Assembly (NCBI RefSeq): GCF_002854065.1
Contig: NZ_CP024147.1
Strand: one strand, 5' to 3'
DNA: 64,000 nucleotides
From: Escherichia coli
Lineage (GTDB): Bacteria; Pseudomonadota; Gammaproteobacteria; Enterobacterales; Enterobacteriaceae
Positions 3,281-46,711 of the stretch are shown here, in pieces. The notes under the pieces were generated by a model. The model made no database searches. It was not told the DNA's origin and saw only the letters and a program-made list of their open reading frames with translations. Made by a program: the position numbers and the translations under genes. Positions within the stretch are counted from its first letter, which is position 1; the number at the start of each line of letters is the position of its first letter.

Positions 3281-4138
3281 ATGAAAGCACCAGGCTTGCC
3301 CGCCGATCAACAATTTTTCGCCGATCTGTTCAGCGGCCTGGTGCTTAACCCGCAACTACTGGGGCGCGTCTGGTTTGCCAGCCAGCCTGCCTCGTTGCCG
3401 GTGGGCAGTTTATGTATTGATTTTCCCCGTCTGGATATCGTGCTGCGCGGCGAATACGGCAATCTGCTGGAAGCAAAGCAGCAACGTTTGGTGGAAGGAG
3501 AAATGCTGTTTATTCCGGCGCGCGCGGCTAATTTACCGGTCAACAACAAACCGGTGATGCTGTTAAGCCTGGTGTTCGCTCCGACCTGGCTTGGGTTATC
3601 GTTTTACGATAGCCGCACCACGTCGTTGTTGCATCCTGCTCGCCAGATCCAGCTTCCCAGCCTGCAACGCGGTGAAGGTGAAGCGATGCTTACCGCCCTC
3701 ACCCATCTTAGCCGTTCGCCGCTGGAGCAAAATATCATTCAGCCGCTGGTGTTAAGTTTGCTGCATCTTTGCCGTAACGTGGTGAATATGCCGCCGGGCA
3801 ATTCGCAGCCGCGCGGCGATTTTCTCTATCACAGCATTTGTAACTGGGTTCAGGATAATTATGCCCAGCCGCTCACCCGCGAGAGCGTGGCGCAGTTTTT
3901 TAATATCACGCCCAATCATCTGTCAAAACTGTTTGCTCAGCATGGAACGATGCGTTTTATCGAGTATGTGCGTTGGGTGCGAATGGCGAAGGCGAGGATG
4001 ATTTTGCAGAAATATCATCTGTCAATTCATGAAGTGGCACAGAGTTGCGGTTTTCCGGATAGCGACTATTTTTGTCGCGTTTTCCGGCGTCAGTTTGGTC
4101 TGACGCCGGGAGAGTACAGCGCCCGTTTTCAGGGCTAA
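3281..4138 (+). CDS. ypdC: AraC-family transcriptional regulator YpdC
   Basis: 285 aa with C-terminal AraC HTH signature (HLSKLF...FPDSDYFCRVFRRQFGLTPGEY). Confidence 0.85.
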   Translation: MKAPGLPADQQFFADLFSGLVLNPQLLGRVWFASQPASLPVGSLCIDFPRLDIVLRGEYGNLLEAKQQRLVEGEMLFIPARAANLPVNNKPVMLLSLVFAPTWLGLSFYDSRTTSLLHPARQIQLPSLQRGEGEAMLTALTHLSRSPLEQNIIQPLVLSLLHLCRNVVNMPPGNSQPRGDFLYHSICNWVQDNYAQPLTRESVAQFFNITPNHLSKLFAQHGTMRFIEYVRWVRMAKARMILQKYHLSIHEVAQSCGFPDSDYFCRVFRRQFGLTPGEYSARFQG

Positions 4139-4140
4139 CG

Positions 4141-6636
4141 TCAGAAGGTTAATTCTGTTTCCAGCAGCGTCAGGATACTTTGTGCATCTTGCGCGGCAAA
4201 CAATGACTGGCGGAAGTTTTTATTCACCAGTTTACGCGCCAGCTGCGAGAAGACTTTCACATGATTCATCCCTTCGTTAGCACCCAGCGTCAGCATGATC
4301 ACCAGTTCGACTTCGCCCATTTCTGACTGCCAGTCAACCGGTTTCGCCAGCCGGGCAATGCTGATACTGGAATGACGGATCCACTGAGATTTGGTGTGCG
4401 GGATCGCCACGCCAAAACCAACGCCAGTGGTGACAATCTCTTCCCGCTGCCAGACATCCTCTTCCAGCTCGAACGGATGTTCAGTGCGCCCGTTAACGCC
4501 GAGGTTACCGCACAGGAACTGGATCGCCTGCTCTTTATTGCTAAAGGCCTGATCAACGAAGATATTCTCCAGCGCCAGCAGCGGGCGAACGTCTTCTTCC
4601 GGCGTAAAGGCGGTGAGTAACGCTTCAATTTCCTGCGCGCTGCGGCATTCACACGCCTGACGTGCCAGTTCCCGACACGCCTCGCTATCCAATTGACGAA
4701 GCTGGCTTTTCACCGCCGGAATGCGCGGGCTACTCATACTCAGCTCATCCAGGCCCAGCCCAAGCAGTAGCGGCAGATAACGGCTTTCACCGCCCAGTTC
4801 ACCGCAAATGCCTACCCATTTGCCCCGCTGATGCGCAGTGGTAACTATTTGCTGCAACATGCGCAGGAACGATGGCGTAATCGGGTTATATAGCGGCGAT
4901 ACGCGCGGGTTATTACGATCGACCGCATACAGATACTGGGTCATATCGTTGGAGCCGATACTGAAGAAATCGACCTCATCGCAGAAGTGATCGATGATGT
5001 AGCACACCGACGGCACTTCCACCATGATACCCAGCGTAATCGTCTCTGCATGACGCAGGCCATCGCGCTTAAGCTCAACGATCGCTTTTTGGATCTCGCC
5101 CTTCACCCATAAGATCTGATCGAGGCTGTGGACCATCGGGATCATCAACTGGGCGTTGCCGAAACTGGCGGCGCGCAAAATGGCCCGCAGTTGAGTGCGG
5201 AACAGGCCAGCAAATTCCGGGTAAATACGTACCGCGCGATAGCCGAGGAACGGGTTCTCTTCCTGGGGAATATTCAGATAAGGAATGCTTTTATCGCCTC
5301 CGATGTCCATTGTGCGGAAGATAATCGGCTTGTCGCCCGCTGCCAGTAGCACCTGCTGGTAGGCTTCAAATTGCTCCTGCTCGTCCGGCGCGCTGTCGCG
5401 ATCCATATAGAGCATTTCGGTACGGAACAGCCCGACGCCTTCCGCGCCGTTGGCAAACGCGCCAGGCGCTTCCAGAGCGGTGCCAATATTCGCCGCGATA
5501 TCAATACGCTTGTTATCACGGGAATAAGCCAGCTGCGCGGCAGCCTGCGCCTGTTGTTTTTGGCGTTTATCCGCCAGCGTCTGCGCGACCTGATAATAAC
5601 CGCTCACCGCGTCATTCGGGTTAATCGCCAGCACGCCGCACTGGGCGTCAAGCACTGCAGGTTGCCCGGCATAACGGGCAATCGCATCCAGCGGCAGGCC
5701 GCTCAGTACCGGGATCGCCGAGGCGCGGGCCAGAATCAGGGTATGCGAGGTGCGCCCGGTTTTCTCCAGAATCATACCCGCAAGATTTTTTAAATCCAGG
5801 CTTAAAAACTGGCTTGGGGTTAAATCCTCGGCCACCAGAATAGTCGGTTTTTCCAGCACCAGATTGTTGCGCGGCTTCAGTTCCGGCCAGGTAATATGCA
5901 GCAACTGTTCGCTAATATCGCGAATGTCGCTAACACGTTCGCGCAGATAATCGCTGGCAGAAGCAGAAAGTTTGGCGCAAACCTGCTCCATATTGCTGAT
6001 GATCGCCGCCCCCAGCCCCTGATGCTGTTCTGTCATCAGGCGACGGATATTGCCTGCAAATTCATCATCCTGAATCAGCGACAAATGGGCGCTGAGGATA
6101 GTTTTGCTTTCGCCGTCACGCTCACGCAATTGCTGGTTCAGTTGCTCGGCAAGCGTTGCCAGGCTGTGCTCCAGCCGGGTGGAATCTTGCGCACTGGCGG
6201 GGATTGCCCGATAACTGTCGAGGCTGTCGCTTTGTAACAGGGTCAGCGTACCCACGCCGACGCCGCTTGCCAGCACATTGCCGTACAGTAAATCCGGGTT
6301 AAGGCGGCTTAATGAACGCGGCAGCGGATGCGCCGTCAGTTCTGCCTGCGTAGGCTGAACGCTGTCGCTGTCGATAAAGCGCACCTGGATGTACTCTTCC
6401 AGCACGCGCCGCGCCTGCTCTTCATCGCTGCCGCTAATGTTCAGGCTGCAACTGTCATTAAATAGGGTGCCGGTGCCAATCAGCGCCAGCGAGCTTTTGG
6501 CATCGGCCTTTGCGTTCTGGCGATGGTTAATAAAAGTGATTTCGCTTTGCCACTGGCTGCACTGTTCTTTAAGTTCCCACGCCGGACGAGCATGTAGACC
6601 GTTAGGCAAAGGACAGAGAAATTGAATCGTTAACAT
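4141..6636 (-). CDS. fryA: PTS multiphosphoryl transfer protein FryA (HPr - enzyme I - IIA fusion)
   Basis: 831-aa ORF with N-terminal HPr-like domain (GLHARPA), enzyme I PEP-utilising core and C-terminal fructose-type IIA domain. Confidence 0.9.
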   Translation of the reverse strand: MLTIQFLCPLPNGLHARPAWELKEQCSQWQSEITFINHRQNAKADAKSSLALIGTGTLFNDSCSLNISGSDEEQARRVLEEYIQVRFIDSDSVQPTQAELTAHPLPRSLSRLNPDLLYGNVLASGVGVGTLTLLQSDSLDSYRAIPASAQDSTRLEHSLATLAEQLNQQLRERDGESKTILSAHLSLIQDDEFAGNIRRLMTEQHQGLGAAIISNMEQVCAKLSASASDYLRERVSDIRDISEQLLHITWPELKPRNNLVLEKPTILVAEDLTPSQFLSLDLKNLAGMILEKTGRTSHTLILARASAIPVLSGLPLDAIARYAGQPAVLDAQCGVLAINPNDAVSGYYQVAQTLADKRQKQQAQAAAQLAYSRDNKRIDIAANIGTALEAPGAFANGAEGVGLFRTEMLYMDRDSAPDEQEQFEAYQQVLLAAGDKPIIFRTMDIGGDKSIPYLNIPQEENPFLGYRAVRIYPEFAGLFRTQLRAILRAASFGNAQLMIPMVHSLDQILWVKGEIQKAIVELKRDGLRHAETITLGIMVEVPSVCYIIDHFCDEVDFFSIGSNDMTQYLYAVDRNNPRVSPLYNPITPSFLRMLQQIVTTAHQRGKWVGICGELGGESRYLPLLLGLGLDELSMSSPRIPAVKSQLRQLDSEACRELARQACECRSAQEIEALLTAFTPEEDVRPLLALENIFVDQAFSNKEQAIQFLCGNLGVNGRTEHPFELEEDVWQREEIVTTGVGFGVAIPHTKSQWIRHSSISIARLAKPVDWQSEMGEVELVIMLTLGANEGMNHVKVFSQLARKLVNKNFRQSLFAAQDAQSILTLLETELTF

Positions 6637-20006: not shown

Positions 20007-21754
20007 CATCCTCCACGCCCTGAATGACGAGGATCCCTGCTACGTTCAGGCTGTCGCCTGAATCATTTCGGTGGGTTCCTGCTTCAACGAGTGGCCTGAC
20101 TGCACCATCTCTCCACAGGCAAGAACGGCGTGCCCCGCCGCTAAAATGTTACGAGCGCCGTTTACATCGGCGTTCGCTGTATATCCACATACCTGGCATC
20201 TGAATTTACTTTGTGACAGGCGATTTTCTTTCGCTGTATGACCACAGCACGCGCAACGCTGGCTTGTGTACGCTGGCGGAACAGCAAGCACCTGACCGCC
20301 TCGCCAGAGCTGCTTGTACTCAAGCTGGCGGCGCATTTCATACCAGCCCTGATCCAGTATCGAACGGTTTAAACCTGATTTTGCCCGGACATTGCGCCCC
20401 GGCTGGCTGACCGTACCCGCTGCTGACTTTGACATGTTGCTGACCTTCAAATCCTCAATGACTATCATTGCGTGGTTTTTGCTGACGGTCGTTGTGACTT
20501 TGTGAAGGTAGTCTCTGCGGATATTTGCGGTACAGGAATGCAGTCGCTGTATTTTGCGTTTCTGCTTCTGCCAGTTATTGCTGAATTTGACCTTGCGGCT
20601 TAACTGTCGCTGAAGTCTCGCCAGCTTCTTCTGGTTTTTCTGAAAACTGTTTACAGGCTCAAAGACTGTGCCATCTGACAGCGTGGCGAGTTTAGCCACG
20701 CCAGCATCCAGTCCGACCATTGATGCTGAAGGGTGAACCGGAGTTGATACTTCACTTTCTGTCTGAATACTGATGTACCACTTACCGCAGGACTGGCTGA
20801 CAGTGACATTTTTCACAACACCCGTGACCTGACGGCTGTTCCGGTAGCGCATCCAGCCAAGTTTCGGCAGAAAAATACGGCTGTTTTCCTGATCGAGCTT
20901 AACGCCCTGCGGGTAGCGGAATGCATCATTCTGTCCCCGCTTTTTGAATCGGGGAAAAGCAGCCCGCTTCCGGAAGAAGTTTTTGTAAGCCCGCTCAAGG
21001 TCTTTCAGTGACTGTTGCAATGGCTGTGAGGGCGAATCTTTAAGCCATTGCGTTTCAGTGGCATTTTTCCACTCAACCAGCCAGGAAGCCATTTTCCCGT
21101 AAGGGATGTATTTATTACCGGCCTCATGATTCTCATTCTGACGTGCCAGAGCACGATTGAAAACGAAACGACATGCGCCTGCGAAGCGCCTCATTTCACG
21201 CTCCTGTTGACCAGCGGGTCTTAACTGGAATTTAAATGCCTGTAGTCGTTTCACAGGCCAAATGATACTTTGGTCTATGAATAAAGAAACCGATATCCGA
21301 CGGGGAAGGCATTGTGTTTTCCTGATGCATGTTCATCTGGTCTTTGTCACCAGATACCGACGTCAGATTTTTGACTATGACGCGACAGAAAAACTACGCA
21401 CTTACTTTTCAAATGTATGTGCTGATTTTGAAGCTGAACTGGTTGAAATGGATGGCGAACCAGATCACGTCCATTTGTTAATTAACTATCCTCCCAAACT
21501 GGCGATATCCAGTCTGGTAAACAGCCTCAAAGGCGTATCGGGTAGGTTACTGCGACGAGATCGACCAGATATTGCAGTCAGGTATTACTACAAAGGCGTT
21601 TTGTGGAGTCCTGGCTATTTTGCCAGTAGCTGCGGAGGTGCGCCAATATCCGTCATCCGCCAATACATTGAACAACAGCAAACACCTGGTCAGGTGGAAA
21701 ACCGCGCCTTATATCCCCGCCCTGAAGGACGGGGTTTTACGGCGCACCGGATAA
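20007..21754 (-). mobile_element. IS200/IS605-family insertion sequence (IS605-type divergent tnpA/tnpB; possibly IS609-like); boundaries approximate
   Basis: Divergent Y1/HUH tnpA and tnpB fill the yfeD-gltX gap; an 18-nt related motif (CGCCCTGAA-T/G-GACG-A/G-GG) occurs in the same orientation at both ends, as expected for IS200/IS605 subterminal hairpins; gltX terminator lies immediately outside. Confidence 0.7.
20046..21254 (-). CDS. tnpB: TnpB (OrfB) RuvC-like RNA-guided endonuclease family protein
   Basis: 402 aa, GTG start; RuvC-I GLDAGV, Ruv[11 protein letters not shown], zinc finger CACCGH...CQVCG, Ruv[14 protein letters not shown] all present. Confidence 0.85.
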
Positions 21755-23220: not shown

Positions 23221-23478
23221 GAAATGGCCTTACGTTTAGAAAGATGCCGACAACCGGCAAATCCTGGAAAAATTGAGTGGGCGATATTCTATCACTCCCG
23301 CCTGATTCCTCAATGTAGTTCGGGTTGCAACCTTACGCATTATTGTTTTCGTTGACAAATTGCGCAACACGGTCTGTTTTGCGATCATCTTGCTTAAATT
23401 TACGACGAACGAACAATTTCTTTAGAAAATGCGTTGACTCATTTTGAACTCTCCCTATAATGCGACTCCACACAGCGG

Positions 23479-23554
23479 GGGTGATTAGCTCAGCTGGGAG
23501 AGCACCTCCCTTACAAGGAGGGGGTCGGCGGTTCGATCCCGTCATCACCCACCA
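23479..23554 (+). tRNA. valU: tRNA-Val (UAC)
   Basis: GGGTGATTAGCTCAGCTGGGAGAGCACCTCCCTTACAAGGAGGGGGTCGGCGGTTCGATCCCGTCATCACCCACCA. Confidence 0.95.
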
Positions 23555-23598
23555 ACTGCTTTATGTAGTCTCCGCCGTGTAGCAAGAAATTGAGAAGT

Positions 23599-23674
23599 GG
23601 GTGATTAGCTCAGCTGGGAGAGCACCTCCCTTACAAGGAGGGGGTCGGCGGTTCGATCCCGTCATCACCCACCA
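23599..23674 (+). tRNA. valX: tRNA-Val (UAC)
   Basis: Identical copy of valU. Confidence 0.95.
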
Positions 23675-23720
23675 CTTTCTCACCAGCTAAATTTCTTGTA
23701 AAAATGTGAAGTACCGAAGT

Positions 23721-23796
23721 GGGTGATTAGCTCAGCTGGGAGAGCACCTCCCTTACAAGGAGGGGGTCGGCGGTTCGATCCCGTCATCACCCACCA
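23721..23796 (+). tRNA. valY: tRNA-Val (UAC)
   Basis: Identical copy of valU. Confidence 0.95.
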
Positions 23797-23800
23797 CTTC

Positions 23801-23876
23801 GGGTCGTTAGCTCAGTTGGTAGAGCAGTTGACTTTTAATCAATTGGTCGCAGGTTCGAATCCTGCACGACCCACCA
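23801..23876 (+). tRNA. lysV: tRNA-Lys (UUU)
   Basis: GGGTCGTTAGCTCAGTTGGTAGAGCAGTTGACTTTTAATCAATTGGTCGCAGGTTCGAATCCTGCACGACCCACCA, 4 nt after valY. Confidence 0.95.
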
Positions 23877-23881
23877 ATGTA

Positions 23882-23907
23882 AAAAAGCGCCCTAAAGGCG
23901 CTTTTTT
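23882..23907 (+). terminator. Terminator of the val-lys tRNA operon
   Basis: GCGCC-CTAAA-GGCGC hairpin followed by TTTTTT. Confidence 0.8.
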
Positions 23908-23940
23908 GCTATCTGCGATTTGTATGATTGATTTTTCTTC

Positions 23941-23967
23941 TCAAGTTCCTTGTTCTTCTACCGATAT
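23941..23967 (+). promoter_or_regulatory. Candidate sigma28 (FliA) promoter for the FlxA-like gene
   Basis: TCAAGTTC-N11-ACCGATAT versus consensus TAAAGTTT-N11-GCCGATAA (6/8 and 6/8, correct spacing), 29 bp upstream of the ATG. Confidence 0.45.
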
Positions 23968-23995
23968 TACCTCGTACAGTGACGAGGACTGAACA

Positions 23996-24337
23996 ATGGC
24001 CACTATCTCTTCAACTTCAATTCCTTCCATACAAACACAGAGTAGTAACAGGGCATCACAAGGTAGCGATGTTGCTTCACAAATCGCGCGGATAAGTCAG
24101 CAAATCATCAAACTCACTCAACAAATTAAAGAGATTGTAGATACTAGCGGCAGTGCTGAAGACAAGCAAAAACAGGCCGAATTGATTCAACAGCAAATCA
24201 CCCTACTGGAAACACAACTGGCGCAGTTGCAGAGACAGCAGGCAGAAAAGGCGCAGGAGAAAGAGCAGCGTTTGTCTCTGAATGTATCCCTTCTAAATCC
24301 TGTTGAAAATACGACTCATATCGATATCTATATCTGA
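23996..24337 (+). CDS. FlxA-like coiled-coil protein
   Basis: 113 aa, Q-rich coiled coil, C-terminal THIDIYI resembling the FlxA family tail, N-terminal Ser/Thr-rich segment; convergent 10-nt overlap with yfeR. Confidence 0.6.
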
Positions 24338-25254
24338 TACAACGGATCCCCTTCCCGACCAGCCATTAGCGCATTGCCCTGGTCTCGTACCACGTCCCAT
24401 AACGCTTCAGCGGCGGTGGAAAGTGAACGGTTCTTCCTGCGCACCAGCATCAACTGGCGTTCAACAACCGGCGTAATGCGCTTTACCACCAGCGGGCTAC
24501 CTTCAGGCAATGGTAGCGCCAGTGCGGGAAGAATACTGATGCCGATGCCTGCGGCTACCATCGGGAACAGCGTCGCCGGATGTCCAATCTCCTGCACAAT
24601 ATTCGCCTGAATACCATTGCGCGCCAGCGCTGCGTCAATCAGCGGTCGGCTGCCTGACGCGTAATCCTGCAACACCAATTTCGCTCCCTGTAATGCCTGC
24701 CAGGGTACATAATCTTCCACGGTCAAAGCGCTATCGCGATGGCAAAGCAGAAAGAAAGGCTCGGAAAGAATCGCTTCACATTGCAGATCGCCCACTGGGC
24801 CTGGATCGATGACGATGCCAAAGTCGACATCTCCCTGGCGAATACTTTCCATCACCCACTGCTGCGGACGATCGTGCAGGACAAACTGAATATCTGGATA
24901 GCGGCGATGGCTTTCAGCAATGCATTGCGGAATAAGATGCGCGGAAATGGTCTGGCTGGCAGCGACCCGAACTTTTCCGCTCAGTTGTTGCCCCATACGC
25001 CCGGTATCGCGCAACGTGCTGTTAAGTTCATCCAGCAGTCGCTCAAGACGCAAAGCCAACTGCTGCCCTGCATCTGTAAGCACCACTTCACGCGTGGTTC
25101 TGTCCAGCAGGCGAACACCAGTATGATTTTCCAGCTCCTTCACACTGTGACTTACTGCCGACTGGCTCAGGCCGATACGCTCTCCTGCACGACTAAAACT
25201 TTTCTCCTGCGCTACTGTGACGAAAACCTTTAATTGTTTTAAAGAATAATTCAT
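24328..25254 (-). CDS. yfeR: LysR-family transcriptional regulator YfeR
   Basis: 308 aa, N-terminal LysR HTH ([23 protein letters not shown]). Confidence 0.85.
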
Positions 25255-25343
25255 CTGTTTTCTTCATGAATGGATGCAATAAATCAATTTTATTTCTCAA
25301 ACTGGAAGAAGCACAATAGAACCATCGATCATCTGGAGTCTTT

Positions 25344-26342
25344 ATGAAACTTTTTCGTATCCTCGATCCTTTCACCTTAACCCTGATCACGGTGGTGTTG
25401 CTGGCCTCTTTCTTTCCGGCCAGAGGCGATTTCGTCCCCTTCTTTGAAAATCTGACCACCGCAGCTATTGCCCTGCTGTTCTTTATGCACGGCGCGAAGT
25501 TGTCGCGTGAGGCGATTATTGCTGGCGGTGGTCACTGGCGACTGCATTTGTGGGTAATGTGCAGCACCTTCGTGCTGTTTCCGATTCTGGGTGTACTGTT
25601 TGCCTGGTGGAAACCGGTAAATGTCGACCCGATGCTCTACTCCGGTTTTCTCTACTTGTGCATTCTCCCGGCTACCGTGCAGTCTGCAATCGCCTTCACG
25701 TCAATGGCGGGCGGTAACGTCGCGGCGGCGGTTTGTTCTGCGTCAGCATCCAGCCTGCTGGGGATTTTCCTTTCACCATTGCTGGTTGGTCTGGTGATGA
25801 ATGTTCACGGTGCAGGGGGCAGCCTTGAGCAAGTCGGTAAAATTATGCTGCAACTGCTGCTGCCGTTTGTGTTGGGGCATCTTTCCCGGCCGTGGATTGG
25901 TGACTGGGTGTCGCGCAATAAAAAATGGATTGCGAAAACTGACCAGACGTCCATTCTGTTAGTGGTTTATACAGCGTTCAGCGAAGCCGTCGTTAATGGT
26001 ATCTGGCATAAAGTTGGCTGGGGATCATTGCTGTTTATCGTGGTGGTCAGCTGCGTTCTTCTGGCTATCGTGATTGTAGTTAACGTCTTTATGGCACGCC
26101 GACTGGGCTTCAATAAAGCAGATGAAATTACTATCGTCTTTTGTGGTTCGAAAAAGAGTCTGGCAAATGGCATCCCGATGGCAAACATTCTGTTCCCCAC
26201 ATCGGTGATCGGTATGATGGTGCTGCCCCTGATGATTTTCCATCAGATCCAATTGATGGTCTGTGCGGTGCTGGCGCGTCGATACAAACGCCAGACCGAA
26301 CAGTTACAGGCGCAGCAGGAAAGCAGCACCGATAAAGCTTAA
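25344..26342 (+). CDS. yfeH: Bile acid:sodium symporter family membrane protein YfeH
   Basis: 332-aa polytopic membrane protein, position matches K-12. Confidence 0.85.
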   Translation: MKLFRILDPFTLTLITVVLLASFFPARGDFVPFFENLTTAAIALLFFMHGAKLSREAIIAGGGHWRLHLWVMCSTFVLFPILGVLFAWWKPVNVDPMLYSGFLYLCILPATVQSAIAFTSMAGGNVAAAVCSASASSLLGIFLSPLLVGLVMNVHGAGGSLEQVGKIMLQLLLPFVLGHLSRPWIGDWVSRNKKWIAKTDQTSILLVVYTAFSEAVVNGIWHKVGWGSLLFIVVVSCVLLAIVIVVNVFMARRLGFNKADEITIVFCGSKKSLANGIPMANILFPTSVIGMMVLPLMIFHQIQLMVCAVLARRYKRQTEQLQAQQESSTDKA

Positions 26343-45406: not shown

Positions 45407-46711
45407 ATGAAACGGACAATGCTCTATCTTTCTCTGCTGGCTGTCAGCTATAGCGTCAGCGCCGCAAAATACCCTGTTCTGACAGAAAGTTCGCCAGAGA
45501 AAGCAGGGTTCAACGTCGAACGGCTTAACCAGATGGATCGCTGGATTAGCCAGCAAGTGGACGCCGGTTATCCCGGCGTAAACCTGCTGATTATAAAAGA
45601 TAATCAGATTGTGTATCGCAAAGCCTGGGGAGCGGCGAAAAAGTACGATGGCAGCGTATTGATGGAACAGCCTGTCAAAGCCACCACCGGGACGCTGTAT
45701 GACCTGGCTTCCAATACCAAGATGTACGCCACTAACTTTGCTCTGCAAAAGCTAATGAGCGAAGGCAAGCTGCATCCTGACGATCGGATTGCGAAATATA
45801 TTCCGGGATTTGCCGATAGTCCAAATGACACCATCAAAGGCAAAAACACGCTGCGGATTTCTGACCTGCTGCATCACAGCGGCGGTTTCCCGGCGGACCC
45901 ACAATATCCGAATAAAGCGGTCGCGGGCGCGTTATATTCCCAGGATAAAGGCCAAACGCTGGAGATGATCAAGCGCACGCCGCTAGAGTATCAGCCCGGC
46001 AGCAAGCATATTTACAGTGATGTCGATTATATGCTGCTTGGATTTATCGTCGAGTCGGTCACCGGTCAGCCGCTTGACCGCTATGTTGAAGAGTCGATTT
46101 ATCGCCCGCTCGGCCTGAAACATACGGTATTTAACCCGTTGCTGAAAGGCTTTAAACCGCAGCAAATTGCCGCCACGGAATTGAACGGCAATACCCGCGA
46201 TGGAGTGATCCACTTCCCGAATATCCGCACCTCCACTCTCTGGGGTCAGGTGCACGATGAAAAAGCCTTTTATTCGATGGGCGGCGTTTCCGGGCACGCA
46301 GGTTTGTTTTCCAATACCGGCGATATTGCGGTGTTAATGCAAACGATGCTGAACGGCGGGGGCTATGGCGATGTGCAGCTGTTCAGTGCGGAAACGGTGA
46401 AGATGTTCACCACCAGCTCTAAGGAAGATGCCACTTTTGGCCTCGGCTGGCGCGTGAATGGTAATGCCACCATGACGCCGACGTTTGGCACGCTGGCAAG
46501 CCCGCAAACCTACGGTCACACTGGCTGGACCGGAACGGTGACCGTTATCGATCCGGTGAATCATATGGCGATTGTGATGTTAAGCAACAAGCCACATTCG
46601 CCAGTTGCCGATCCGCAAAAGAATCCCAATATGTTCGAAAGCGGTCAGTTACCGATTGCAACTTATGGTTGGGTGGTTGATCAGGTATATGCGGCGTTAA
46701 AGCAGAAATAA
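45407..46711 (+). CDS. yfeW: Penicillin-binding protein 4B-like serine hydrolase YfeW
   Basis: 434 aa from ATG 45407 with signal peptide; beta-lactamase-fold SxxK motif (SNTK). Confidence 0.85.
   Translation: MKRTMLYLSLLAVSYSVSAAKYPVLTESSPEKAGFNVERLNQMDRWISQQVDAGYPGVNLLIIKDNQIVYRKAWGAAKKYDGSVLMEQPVKATTGTLYDLASNTKMYATNFALQKLMSEGKLHPDDRIAKYIPGFADSPNDTIKGKNTLRISDLLHHSGGFPADPQYPNKAVAGALYSQDKGQTLEMIKRTPLEYQPGSKHIYSDVDYMLLGFIVESVTGQPLDRYVEESIYRPLGLKHTVFNPLLKGFKPQQIAATELNGNTRDGVIHFPNIRTSTLWGQVHDEKAFYSMGGVSGHAGLFSNTGDIAVLMQTMLNGGGYGDVQLFSAETVKMFTTSSKEDATFGLGWRVNGNATMTPTFGTLASPQTYGHTGWTGTVTVIDPVNHMAIVMLSNKPHSPVADPQKNPNMFESGQLPIATYGWVVDQVYAALKQK

Follow-up and report, generated by a model that had tools for sequence, protein, structure and literature searches.

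Gene content of the lysV–yfeR interval

The DNA under study is a stretch of 64,000 nucleotides from Escherichia coli (contig NZ_CP024147.1), here referred to as the window. The order of genes in the region of interest is gltX (−), valU-valX-valY-lysV (+), flxL (+), yfeR (−), and yfeH (+), and the positions of all features are given in Table 1. The stop codon of yfeR lies 451 nt past lysV, close to the distance of about 450 bp estimated in the original prediction. The sole open reading frame in this gap is flxL; its product comprises 113 amino acids, 20 of which are glutamine, and ends in NTTHIDIYI, as had been read from the sequence before (a single Q-rich frame of this length ending in THIDIYI). 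The genes flxL and yfeR are convergent and overlap by 10 nt, and a terminator scan between the two reported none. The terminator-like hairpin of the tRNA operon escaped a simple terminator scan; its sequence is identical in K-12-like strains. An Rfam scan of the interval matched the tRNAs alone. Positions 23400 to 25300 are 100% identical to the corresponding region of E. coli strain 100416 (NZ_CM128593.1).

Table 1. Features of the lysV–yfeR region, with positions in the window
Feature	Position	Strand	Basis
valU-valX-valY-lysV tRNA operon	23479-23876	+	ARAGORN, Rfam tRNA matches, RefSeq annotation of identical strain
tRNA-Val UAC (three copies)	23479-23554, 23599-23674, 23721-23796	+	ARAGORN
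tRNA-Lys UUU (lysV)	23801-23876	+	ARAGORN
Intrinsic-terminator-like hairpin of the tRNA operon, AAAAAA GCGCC ctaaa GGCGC TTTTTT	23881-23907	+	Read from sequence
Strain-variable segment, ~404 bp	23923-24326	none	Alignment with two K-12-type junctions
Predicted FliA (sigma-28) class-3 promoter	23941-23968	+	PWM from FliA ChIP-seq motifs
Leader hairpin	23970-23987	+	RNA fold
flxL (name used here), FlxA-like gene	23996-24337	+	ORF list, Pfam, RefSeq, alignment, AlphaFold2, dN/dS
yfeR, LysR-family regulator	24328-25254	−	ORF list, RefSeq annotation
yfeH, bile acid:sodium symporter family; right-hand synteny anchor	25344-26342	+	ORF list, RefSeq

FlxL as a member of the FlxA family

The flxL product matches the Pfam family FlxA (PF14282) with an i-E of 9.1e-14 (51.8 bits, residues 15–92) and is identical to the RefSeq protein WP_000201414.1, which is named "FlxA-like family protein." Compared with FlxA of E. 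coli K-12 (b1566, located in the Qin prophage and also a PF14282 protein), FlxL shows just 43% identity over 74 residues in BLASTP (E 2e-12), although the two proteins are similar in length (113 versus 110 amino acids) and share a disordered N-terminus, two helices, and a C-terminal IDIY[IV]. The proposed membership in the FlxA family was thus confirmed, the similarity being significant in the profile search as well as in the BLASTP search. With its entries in RefSeq and Pfam and over 1300 complete E. coli genomes that carry it, flxL is an already catalogued gene. No paper was found on "FlxA-like" or on lysV together with xapR in the literature.

FlxL is an acidic protein of 12.5 kDa (pI 5.3) devoid of Cys, Trp, and Phe. 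A disordered N-terminus rich in Ser, Thr, and Gln (residues 1–21) is followed by two helices (24–49 and 54–97) and a disordered tail ending in IDIYI, and AlphaFold2 modeled the protein as a two-helix hairpin with disordered ends at moderate confidence (pLDDT 67). FlxL thereby has the form common to the family, namely, approximately 90–120 amino acids with helices rich in Gln in the middle and (I/V)D(I/V)Y(I/V) at the C-terminus. The tyrosine of this motif (Y112) is near-invariant in a family alignment of 26 sequences. Among 1.84 billion cluster representatives, all of which were scanned, 80 relatives were found at E ≤ 1e-3; of these, 30 were retrieved, most of them with about 110 amino acids, and they have one common architecture. 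The N-terminus is rich in Ser, Thr, and Gly; the first helix has the form SQIxxIxxQIxKLTQQLK and is followed by a short acidic loop; the second helix, of the form LIQxQIxMLQAQLAQLQxQQAE, leads via a variable linker to the C-terminal form GVNxPxxxxxIDIYI. Word-indexed protein searches returned 8 and 50 matches and under-sampled the taxonomic range.

Other resources gave no further assignment of FlxL. The NCBIfam scan returned sub-threshold coiled-coil noise only, the PADLOC defence models had no meaningful match, and a sequence search of the PDB with the family profile retrieved just designed coiled coils and PspA-like low-complexity matches. A Foldseek search of the PDB with the FlxL model gave no significant match. 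The top match (E 0.28) was CdsO bound to CdsV (PDB 6wa9), one of the FliJ/SctO-type antiparallel two-helix hairpins, whose length is like that of the FlxL model. At 10–14% identity and with a generic hairpin fold, this match is not evidence of homology and was set down to general hairpin similarity.

Coding capacity of flxL

In comparison with the orthologue of Pseudocitrobacter faecalis, flxL has a dN/dS of 0.16 at a dS of 0.58, and this purifying selection argues against a chance open reading frame. The values overall range from 0.16 to 0.48; those within E. coli (0.34–0.38) derive from few differences. The start codon and the Shine–Dalgarno sequence are conserved in the orthologues, and the gene is intact and of the same length in five loci of four genera, these being the loci for which open reading frames were listed or translated. 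By these measures of the sequence, flxL is a real gene that encodes a protein of the FlxA family (PF14282). A chance or decaying, untranslated frame might be suspected from its short length and biased composition and from three E. coli genomes in which a garbled copy carries a pseudogene annotation. In view of the low dN/dS, the intact length across genera, the conserved start codon, Shine–Dalgarno sequence, and promoter (see below), and the significant Pfam match, a frame of this kind is strongly disfavoured and has next to no probability.

Two alternative cassettes within E. coli

The homology to K-12 ends after GCTATCTGCGATTTG (position 23922), just beyond the terminator of the tRNA operon, and restarts at 24327, the first base beyond the yfeR stop codon. 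The segment between these junctions stands in place of a block of approximately 4.4 kb, xapR-(DUF1427)-xapB-xapA-yfeN. The K-12 gene order that the original prediction had given for this site was found in MG1655 (lysV-xapR-xapB-xapA-yfeN-yfeR), and in JME67, a K-12-like strain, this order is supplemented by a small DUF1427 open reading frame. In a synteny comparison across E. coli, as had been proposed, the ~404-bp flxL segment was detected in 1317 of 5426 complete genomes (~24%), including O157:H7. In its carriers, it is always chromosomal and single-copy, with 96.5–100% identity. Most other E. coli genomes match the query across yfeR only, like K-12. The presence of flxL is thus ordinary variation among strains.

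Both states of the locus appear to be old. In Citrobacter freundii, xapA-xapB-xapR is located between yfeR and lysV, and the left junction of its xap genes is homologous to that of K-12, which indicates that the xap state is old as well. Salmonella LT2 presumably also carries xapR-xapB-xapA-yfeN at this site and lacks a chromosomal flxL. No remnants of flxL were found in the xap-type loci of K-12 and C. freundii, in which homology restarts only at the yfeR stop codon. In E. coli TUM13867, flxL is 96.5% identical to the gene of the window, compared with 97.7% for both gltX and yfeR. Within the species, the identity of flxL (96.5–97.3%) stands against 97.7–99% for the flanks, and the dS values are 0.071 and 0.065, respectively. 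Since the divergence of flxL tracks that of its flanks, the flxL/xap polymorphism is as old as the diversity of the species. The locus is a clean example of two alternative cassettes, one for xanthosine catabolism and one holding a flagellar-regulon gene, that segregate within one species. An RtT-type repeat past lysV, present in some strains, occurs with both cassettes. Strain HH45 contains a FlxA-like stretch of approximately 1.4 kb that is ridden with indels, for which assembly error and decay are not separable.

Conserved position beside yfeR

In a scan of one genome per species, relatives of flxL were detected in Pseudocitrobacter, Kluyvera (six species), and Pluralibacter, and all of these loci with visible flanks have the gene in the same position between lysV and yfeR. 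Look-ups of remoter family members and of YfeR orthologues extended this to more distant genera: Enterobacter roggenkampii, Enterobacter hormaechei, Scandinavium goeteborgense, and Pantoea/Erwinia carry the gene in the same position adjacent to yfeR. In Serratia liquefaciens, a longer FlxA-like form of 158 amino acids abuts yfeR-yfeH-ypeB-ligA-zipA, with upstream neighbors that are neither gltX nor tRNA genes. The tail-to-tail arrangement with yfeR, either with a 4- to 10-nt overlap or abutting, was thus found in at least seven other genera of three families (Enterobacteriaceae, Erwiniaceae, and Yersiniaceae). Because the Serratia locus lacks the tRNA array, the conserved partner of flxL is yfeR and not the tRNA operon.

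The gene had been described as part of a tRNA-adjacent variable islet. Like tRNA-linked genomic islands, flxL adjoins a tRNA gene (tRNA-Lys) and is strain-variable. In contrast to such islands, the segment is only about 0.4 kb long and syntenic across genera. Neither an integrase nor an IS element is present within the interval, and the 3′ end of lysV is not repeated in positions 23400 to 24500; the marks of tRNA-associated islands, integrase or mobility genes and flanking direct repeats derived from the tRNA, are thus absent. With the position kept across genera and with no integrase and no tRNA-derived repeat, the islet description is largely inverted. The yfeR-adjacent position in at least seven genera and the lack of an integrase and of a repeated tRNA 3′ end lend good support to the view that flxL is an ancestral, long-standing resident of the locus in the Enterobacterales, with xap (+yfeN) as the alternative occupant.

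E. coli itself may owe its flxL to re-acquisition and not to unbroken inheritance. The nearest defensible form of the islet description, which is compatible with flxL being ancestral to the order, is that the Escherichia ancestor already had xap, like Citrobacter, and that flxL is a horizontally acquired cassette in E. coli, which some lineages regained when homologous replacement between the conserved tRNA terminator and yfeR brought it in from a Pseudocitrobacter-like donor. No relatives of flxL were found in the Escherichia genomes of the one-per-species collection, and the left junction of xap is, as described above, homologous in K-12 and C. freundii. The dS of flxL between E. coli and the Pseudocitrobacter metagenome-assembled genome L003 is 0.10–0.11, whereas that of the adjacent yfeR is six-fold higher (0.69), and flxL of L003 differs from that of P. 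faecalis by a dS of 0.65. This contrast between flxL and yfeR implies that the lineages of E. coli and L003 underwent a horizontal exchange, whose direction is not resolvable with three taxa and thus does not settle E. coli as the recipient. The GC content of the segment is also lower than that of the window (42.6% versus 51.7%), but a low GC content is to be expected of a coiled coil rich in Gln, Ile, Lys, and Ser. Any acquisition must be as old as the diversity of the species because flxL is as diverged as its flanks within E. coli. Furthermore, the breakpoints are sharp, no tract resembling a donor reaches into yfeR, which is 98.9% identical to that of K-12, and the segment is free of integrase, IS element, and att repeat. 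On balance, the acquisition of the cassette by E. coli has a substantial minority chance.

Relationship to the prophage paralogue of K-12

The flxA gene of K-12 is prophage-borne, whereas flxL is chromosomal, lies in a core context, and has orthologues at the same position in other genera. The two proteins also differ in their similarity to the phage protein family phrog_11044, which K-12 FlxA matches end to end (E 1.8e-71); the match of FlxL is partial and weak (E 4.6e-8), unlike that of a prophage-borne FlxA. A tblastn search with FlxL against 50,697 phage records returned no match. Genes of the K-12 type were detected in 1200 of the 5426 E. coli genomes with at least 99% identity in nearly all, a pattern consistent with recent spread by prophage. 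The match to the phage family, the near-identical copies, and the lack of phage matches for flxL identify the FlxA protein studied in K-12 as a mobile paralogue of a chromosomal family.

The location of K-12 flxA in the cryptic Qin prophage, its end-to-end match to phrog_11044, and the tRNA gene next to flxL could also be taken to mean that flxL itself is what remains of a prophage or another mobile element that had inserted at tRNA-Lys, comparable to flxA in Qin. This origin is very improbable given the empty search of the phage records, the weak phrog_11044 match of FlxL, neighbors that are all core genes with neither an integrase nor an att-like repeat, and the conservation of the flxL position across genera.

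The predicted sigma-28 promoter of flxL

Upstream of flxL, a promoter of the flagellar class 3 type TAAAGTTT-N11-GCCGATAA is present and correctly placed. It consists of the −35 box TCAAGTTC (23941–23948), an 11-nt spacer, and the −10 box ACCGATAT (23960–23967) and is located 27 nt before the ATG; transcription of flxL would accordingly be predicted to start near 23974–23977. The site was scored with a position weight matrix (PWM) built from the FliA ChIP-seq motifs of PMC4183435 (Fitzgerald et al., 2014, Table 2). With 16.1–16.5 bits, it is the second best site on both strands of the 64-kb window and within the range defined by ChIP, as 20 of the 49 training sites score lower. An equally good site occurs somewhere in 16–18% of shuffled 64-kb windows, and the number of such sites expected in the 119-nt intergenic stretch is 1.5e-4.

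The conservation of this promoter is more telling than its PWM score. All 17 relatives examined at the locus (16 loci outside E. coli and E. coli TUM13867) have an equivalent site, in which the boxes TCAAGT/TAAAGT and [GT]CCGATA are conserved, the spacer sequence is variable, and the end lies 26–34 nt before the ATG. In the nine loci that were scanned first, the FliA site was the single best of the whole locus. A relative in the betaproteobacterial genus Azonexus, located in an unrelated context, is preceded by a sigma-28 site of 21.6 bits, and flxA in the Qin prophage of K-12 by one of 24.5 bits; in flxA and flxL, the promoter lies 22–27 nt before the start. In total, 18 of 19 genes of the family carry the motif, with conserved boxes and a variable spacer; an extra copy of the family (paralogue) in Cedecea has no such site. 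The first −10 position is A in the allele of the window, in place of the G of the consensus; TUM13867 and other genera have G there, and the Erwiniaceae locus has T. The functional promoters of ycgR and fliDST, which share this ACCGATA variant with flxL, also carry ACCGATAA (PMC4183435).

For flxA of K-12, the dependence on FliA, to which FlxA owes its name, is experimental. Deletion of fliA lowered its expression from 280 to 2, and binding of FliA to its promoter was detected by ChIP-seq (PMC4183435); in another study, expression was 28-fold lower in a fliA deletion (PMC1935009). The link to FliA that had been suggested for the family is strengthened by the conserved sigma-28 promoter motif upstream of flxL, and expression of the chromosomal gene is likewise predicted to be FliA-dependent. 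Most likely, flxL would be transcribed from its own sigma-28 promoter and, as one of the late genes (class 3) of the flagellar regulon, would be made only once the hook-basal body is complete. Promoters of the type TAAAGTTT/TCAAGT-N11-GCCGATAA are shared with ycgR, yhjH/pdeH, ynjH, yjcZ, and the modA promoter, which belong to the non-structural part of the FliA regulon of E. coli. These have no sequence relationship to flxL, and those of known function act via c-di-GMP; flxL further differs from other members of the regulon in that its dependence on FliA is a prediction. Taken as a whole, we assign a probability of about 0.8 to the reading of flxL as a genuine FlxA-family gene that is syntenic beside yfeR across the Enterobacterales and most likely has its own sigma-28 promoter.

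Leader hairpin and overlap with yfeR

The leader of flxL can fold into the hairpin CCUCGU-acagug-ACGAGG, in which CCUCGU (23970–23975) pairs with ACGAGG (23982–23987) and thus with part of the Shine–Dalgarno sequence GAGGA (23984–23988). The fold has a free energy of −8.6 kcal/mol (z −1.4). Of 10 other orthologues folded, seven have hairpins at the same place that differ in sequence, and each z-score is weak. Its 5′ arm falls downstream of the −10 box but ahead of the predicted transcription start, so the hairpin is perhaps confined to read-through transcripts. One may speculate that it is present only in read-through from the highly expressed tRNA operon and silences translation of flxL there.

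YfeR was reported to repress FNR and to promote biofilm formation (PMC11227560). With convergent, overlapping genes, no terminator between them, and a pro-biofilm YfeR, interference of antisense transcription from the sigma-28 promoter with yfeR is conceivable. Carried further, the main selected function of flxL could lie at the RNA level: sigma-28-dependent transcription through flxL into the 3′ end of yfeR would dampen YfeR in motile cells, and the peptide would be secondary. Besides the lack of a terminator and the reported effects of YfeR, the tail-to-tail arrangement with yfeR in three families (overlapping by 4–10 nt, abutting in Serratia) and its retention in Serratia despite different upstream neighbors speak for such a function. 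However, the protein is under purifying selection with conserved motifs, paralogues away from yfeR (Qin, Azonexus) have lost neither the protein nor the sigma-28 promoter, and the adjacency may persist through inertia alone. We therefore consider a primary function in the RNA improbable.

Possible function of FlxL

According to Ide and Kutsukake (1997), as cited in PMC4183435 and PMC6551532, FlxA of K-12 is FliA-dependent and dispensable for flagellum formation and motility. FlxL would, like K-12 FlxA, be expected to be dispensable for motility in the laboratory. FlxA was still listed as uncharacterised in a 2024 review of the E. coli y-ome (PMC11551758). The sole FlxA protein ever studied is thus the prophage paralogue of K-12, and the chromosomal context described here should be useful to flagellar biologists. 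The synteny with yfeR and the sigma-28 promoter in three families, together with the sigma-28-linked relative in a betaproteobacterium, argue for a real, selected role of the family that is linked to the flagellum. The conserved synteny and promoter make FlxA function testable in strains with a chromosomal copy, and O157:H7 and other E. coli carriers of flxL are natural test strains for it.

The proteins FlgK, FlgL, FliD, FliC, FlgM, and FlgE are substrates of flagellar export. Together with all of these, FlxA of strain DH5alpha was quantified in a 0.22-µm culture filtrate; the same exoproteome also contained cytoplasmic proteins (PMC6391000). FlxL has a disordered N-terminus without a Sec signal. 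It is small and acidic, its expression probably has class 3 timing, and by analogy with FlxA in the culture filtrate, FlxL, a 12.5-kDa acidic helical hairpin, might be an accessory factor that either leaves the cell through the flagellar type III export apparatus or docks on it. Among the conceivable modes of action, this appears to be the most likely one, and we put it forward as tentative, with a chance clearly below even. The export data concern the paralogue FlxA and come from one exoproteome. FlgM and other late export substrates are likewise small and acidic, have a disordered N-terminus and no Sec signal, and are under sigma-28 control, which is probable for FlxL. FlgM and FlxL have no sequence similarity in the Pfam scan; the resemblance is one of mode of action only, with export of FlxL as a prediction.

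The FlxA family might have been overlooked because K-12 has no chromosomal copy. That it represents an overlooked, conserved late component of the enterobacterial flagellar program, either as an export substrate or gate ligand acting via its C-terminal tyrosine or through sigma-28-dependent transcription that puts a brake on yfeR, is a rather doubtful proposition at present. The export chaperones FlgN, FliT, and FliS bind the cytoplasmic domain of FlhA (FlhA-C) through a conserved tyrosine, which makes the invariant C-terminal tyrosine of the FlxA family a lead of interest.

Variation of the lysV–yfeR locus and its surroundings

Besides the two cassettes found between lysV and yfeR, the FlxA-like segment and xapR-xapB-xapA-yfeN, the locus of E. 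coli HH45 represents a third state. It contains an indel-ridden stretch of approximately 1.4 kb, which is annotated as a frameshifted pseudogene and shows roughly 67% similarity to the FlxA-like segment. The surrounding backbone and the K-12-like strain JME67 encode identical GltX and YfeR proteins, and the identity band of the HH45 stretch holds three genomes. The stretch reflects either real decay or an assembly error limited to strain-specific DNA.

At the yfeR end of the locus, the nucleotide identity of E. coli yfeR is 87% to the Pseudocitrobacter gene and only 76% to that of C. freundii. The neighboring genes yfeH and ligA of E. coli are approximately 80–83% identical to their counterparts in Pseudocitrobacter and C. 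freundii alike. The yfeR end may have a separate exchange history.

Among strains with either cassette, some have a copy of an RtT-type repeat 3′ of lysV; no such repeat follows lysV in the window. The number of tRNA-Val copies (two or three) also differs by strain. On the gltX side, yfeD lies directly beside gltX in K-12-type strains, whereas an IS200/IS605-family element separates both genes in the window strain.

Features of the window and of the compared loci
Feature	Location	Strand	Remarks
IS200/IS605-family element	window ~20046-21687		
insQ/TnpB-like gene	within ~20046-21687	-	part of the element
tnpA pseudogene	within ~20046-21687		truncated; part of the same element
flxL leader hairpin (predicted)	window 23970-23987		
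yfeR	window 24328-25254		
Best FliA-matrix match	window 45793-45820	+	18.4 bits
RtT-type repeat	L002 (lysV locus of another strain) 3431-3556		duplicates lysV 3′ end and terminator
RtT-type repeat	L027 (lysV locus of another strain) 3327-3452		duplicates lysV 3′ end and terminator
K-12-type flxA	L012 (K-12 Qin prophage) 5406-5738		
FlxA-like stretch	L025 (E. coli HH45, NZ_CP116411.1) 3346-4735		

Promoter and leader of flxL

The first base of the sigma-28 −10 box (ACCGATAT) of flxL, at position 23960 of the window, is an A. The same position is occupied by G in E. coli TUM13867 and in other genera, and by T in the Erwiniaceae locus. The window and the O157:H7 strain TR01 share 100% identity over the flxL segment.

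A hairpin predicted in the leader would sequester the Shine-Dalgarno sequence of flxL; its 5′ arm precedes the point at which sigma-28-driven transcription is expected to begin. Equivalent hairpins of differing sequence were found in Pseudocitrobacter, two Kluyvera species, Pluralibacter, Enterobacter, and Serratia, and for K-12 flxA a CUUUU/AAAAG pairing was recognized by eye.

The highest-scoring FliA-matrix match of the window, GAAATATATTCCGGGATTTGCCGATAGT, is located within pbp4b/yfeW in sense orientation. It is absent from the FliA ChIP-seq sites of PMC4183435 and is probably one among many intragenic look-alikes.

Distribution of K-12-type flxA

K-12-type flxA was found in 1200 complete E. 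coli genomes, and in almost every one its identity is at least 99%. Up to three copies occur per genome, and six copies across the whole collection are plasmid-borne. Such a pattern is typical of genes carried as prophage cargo.
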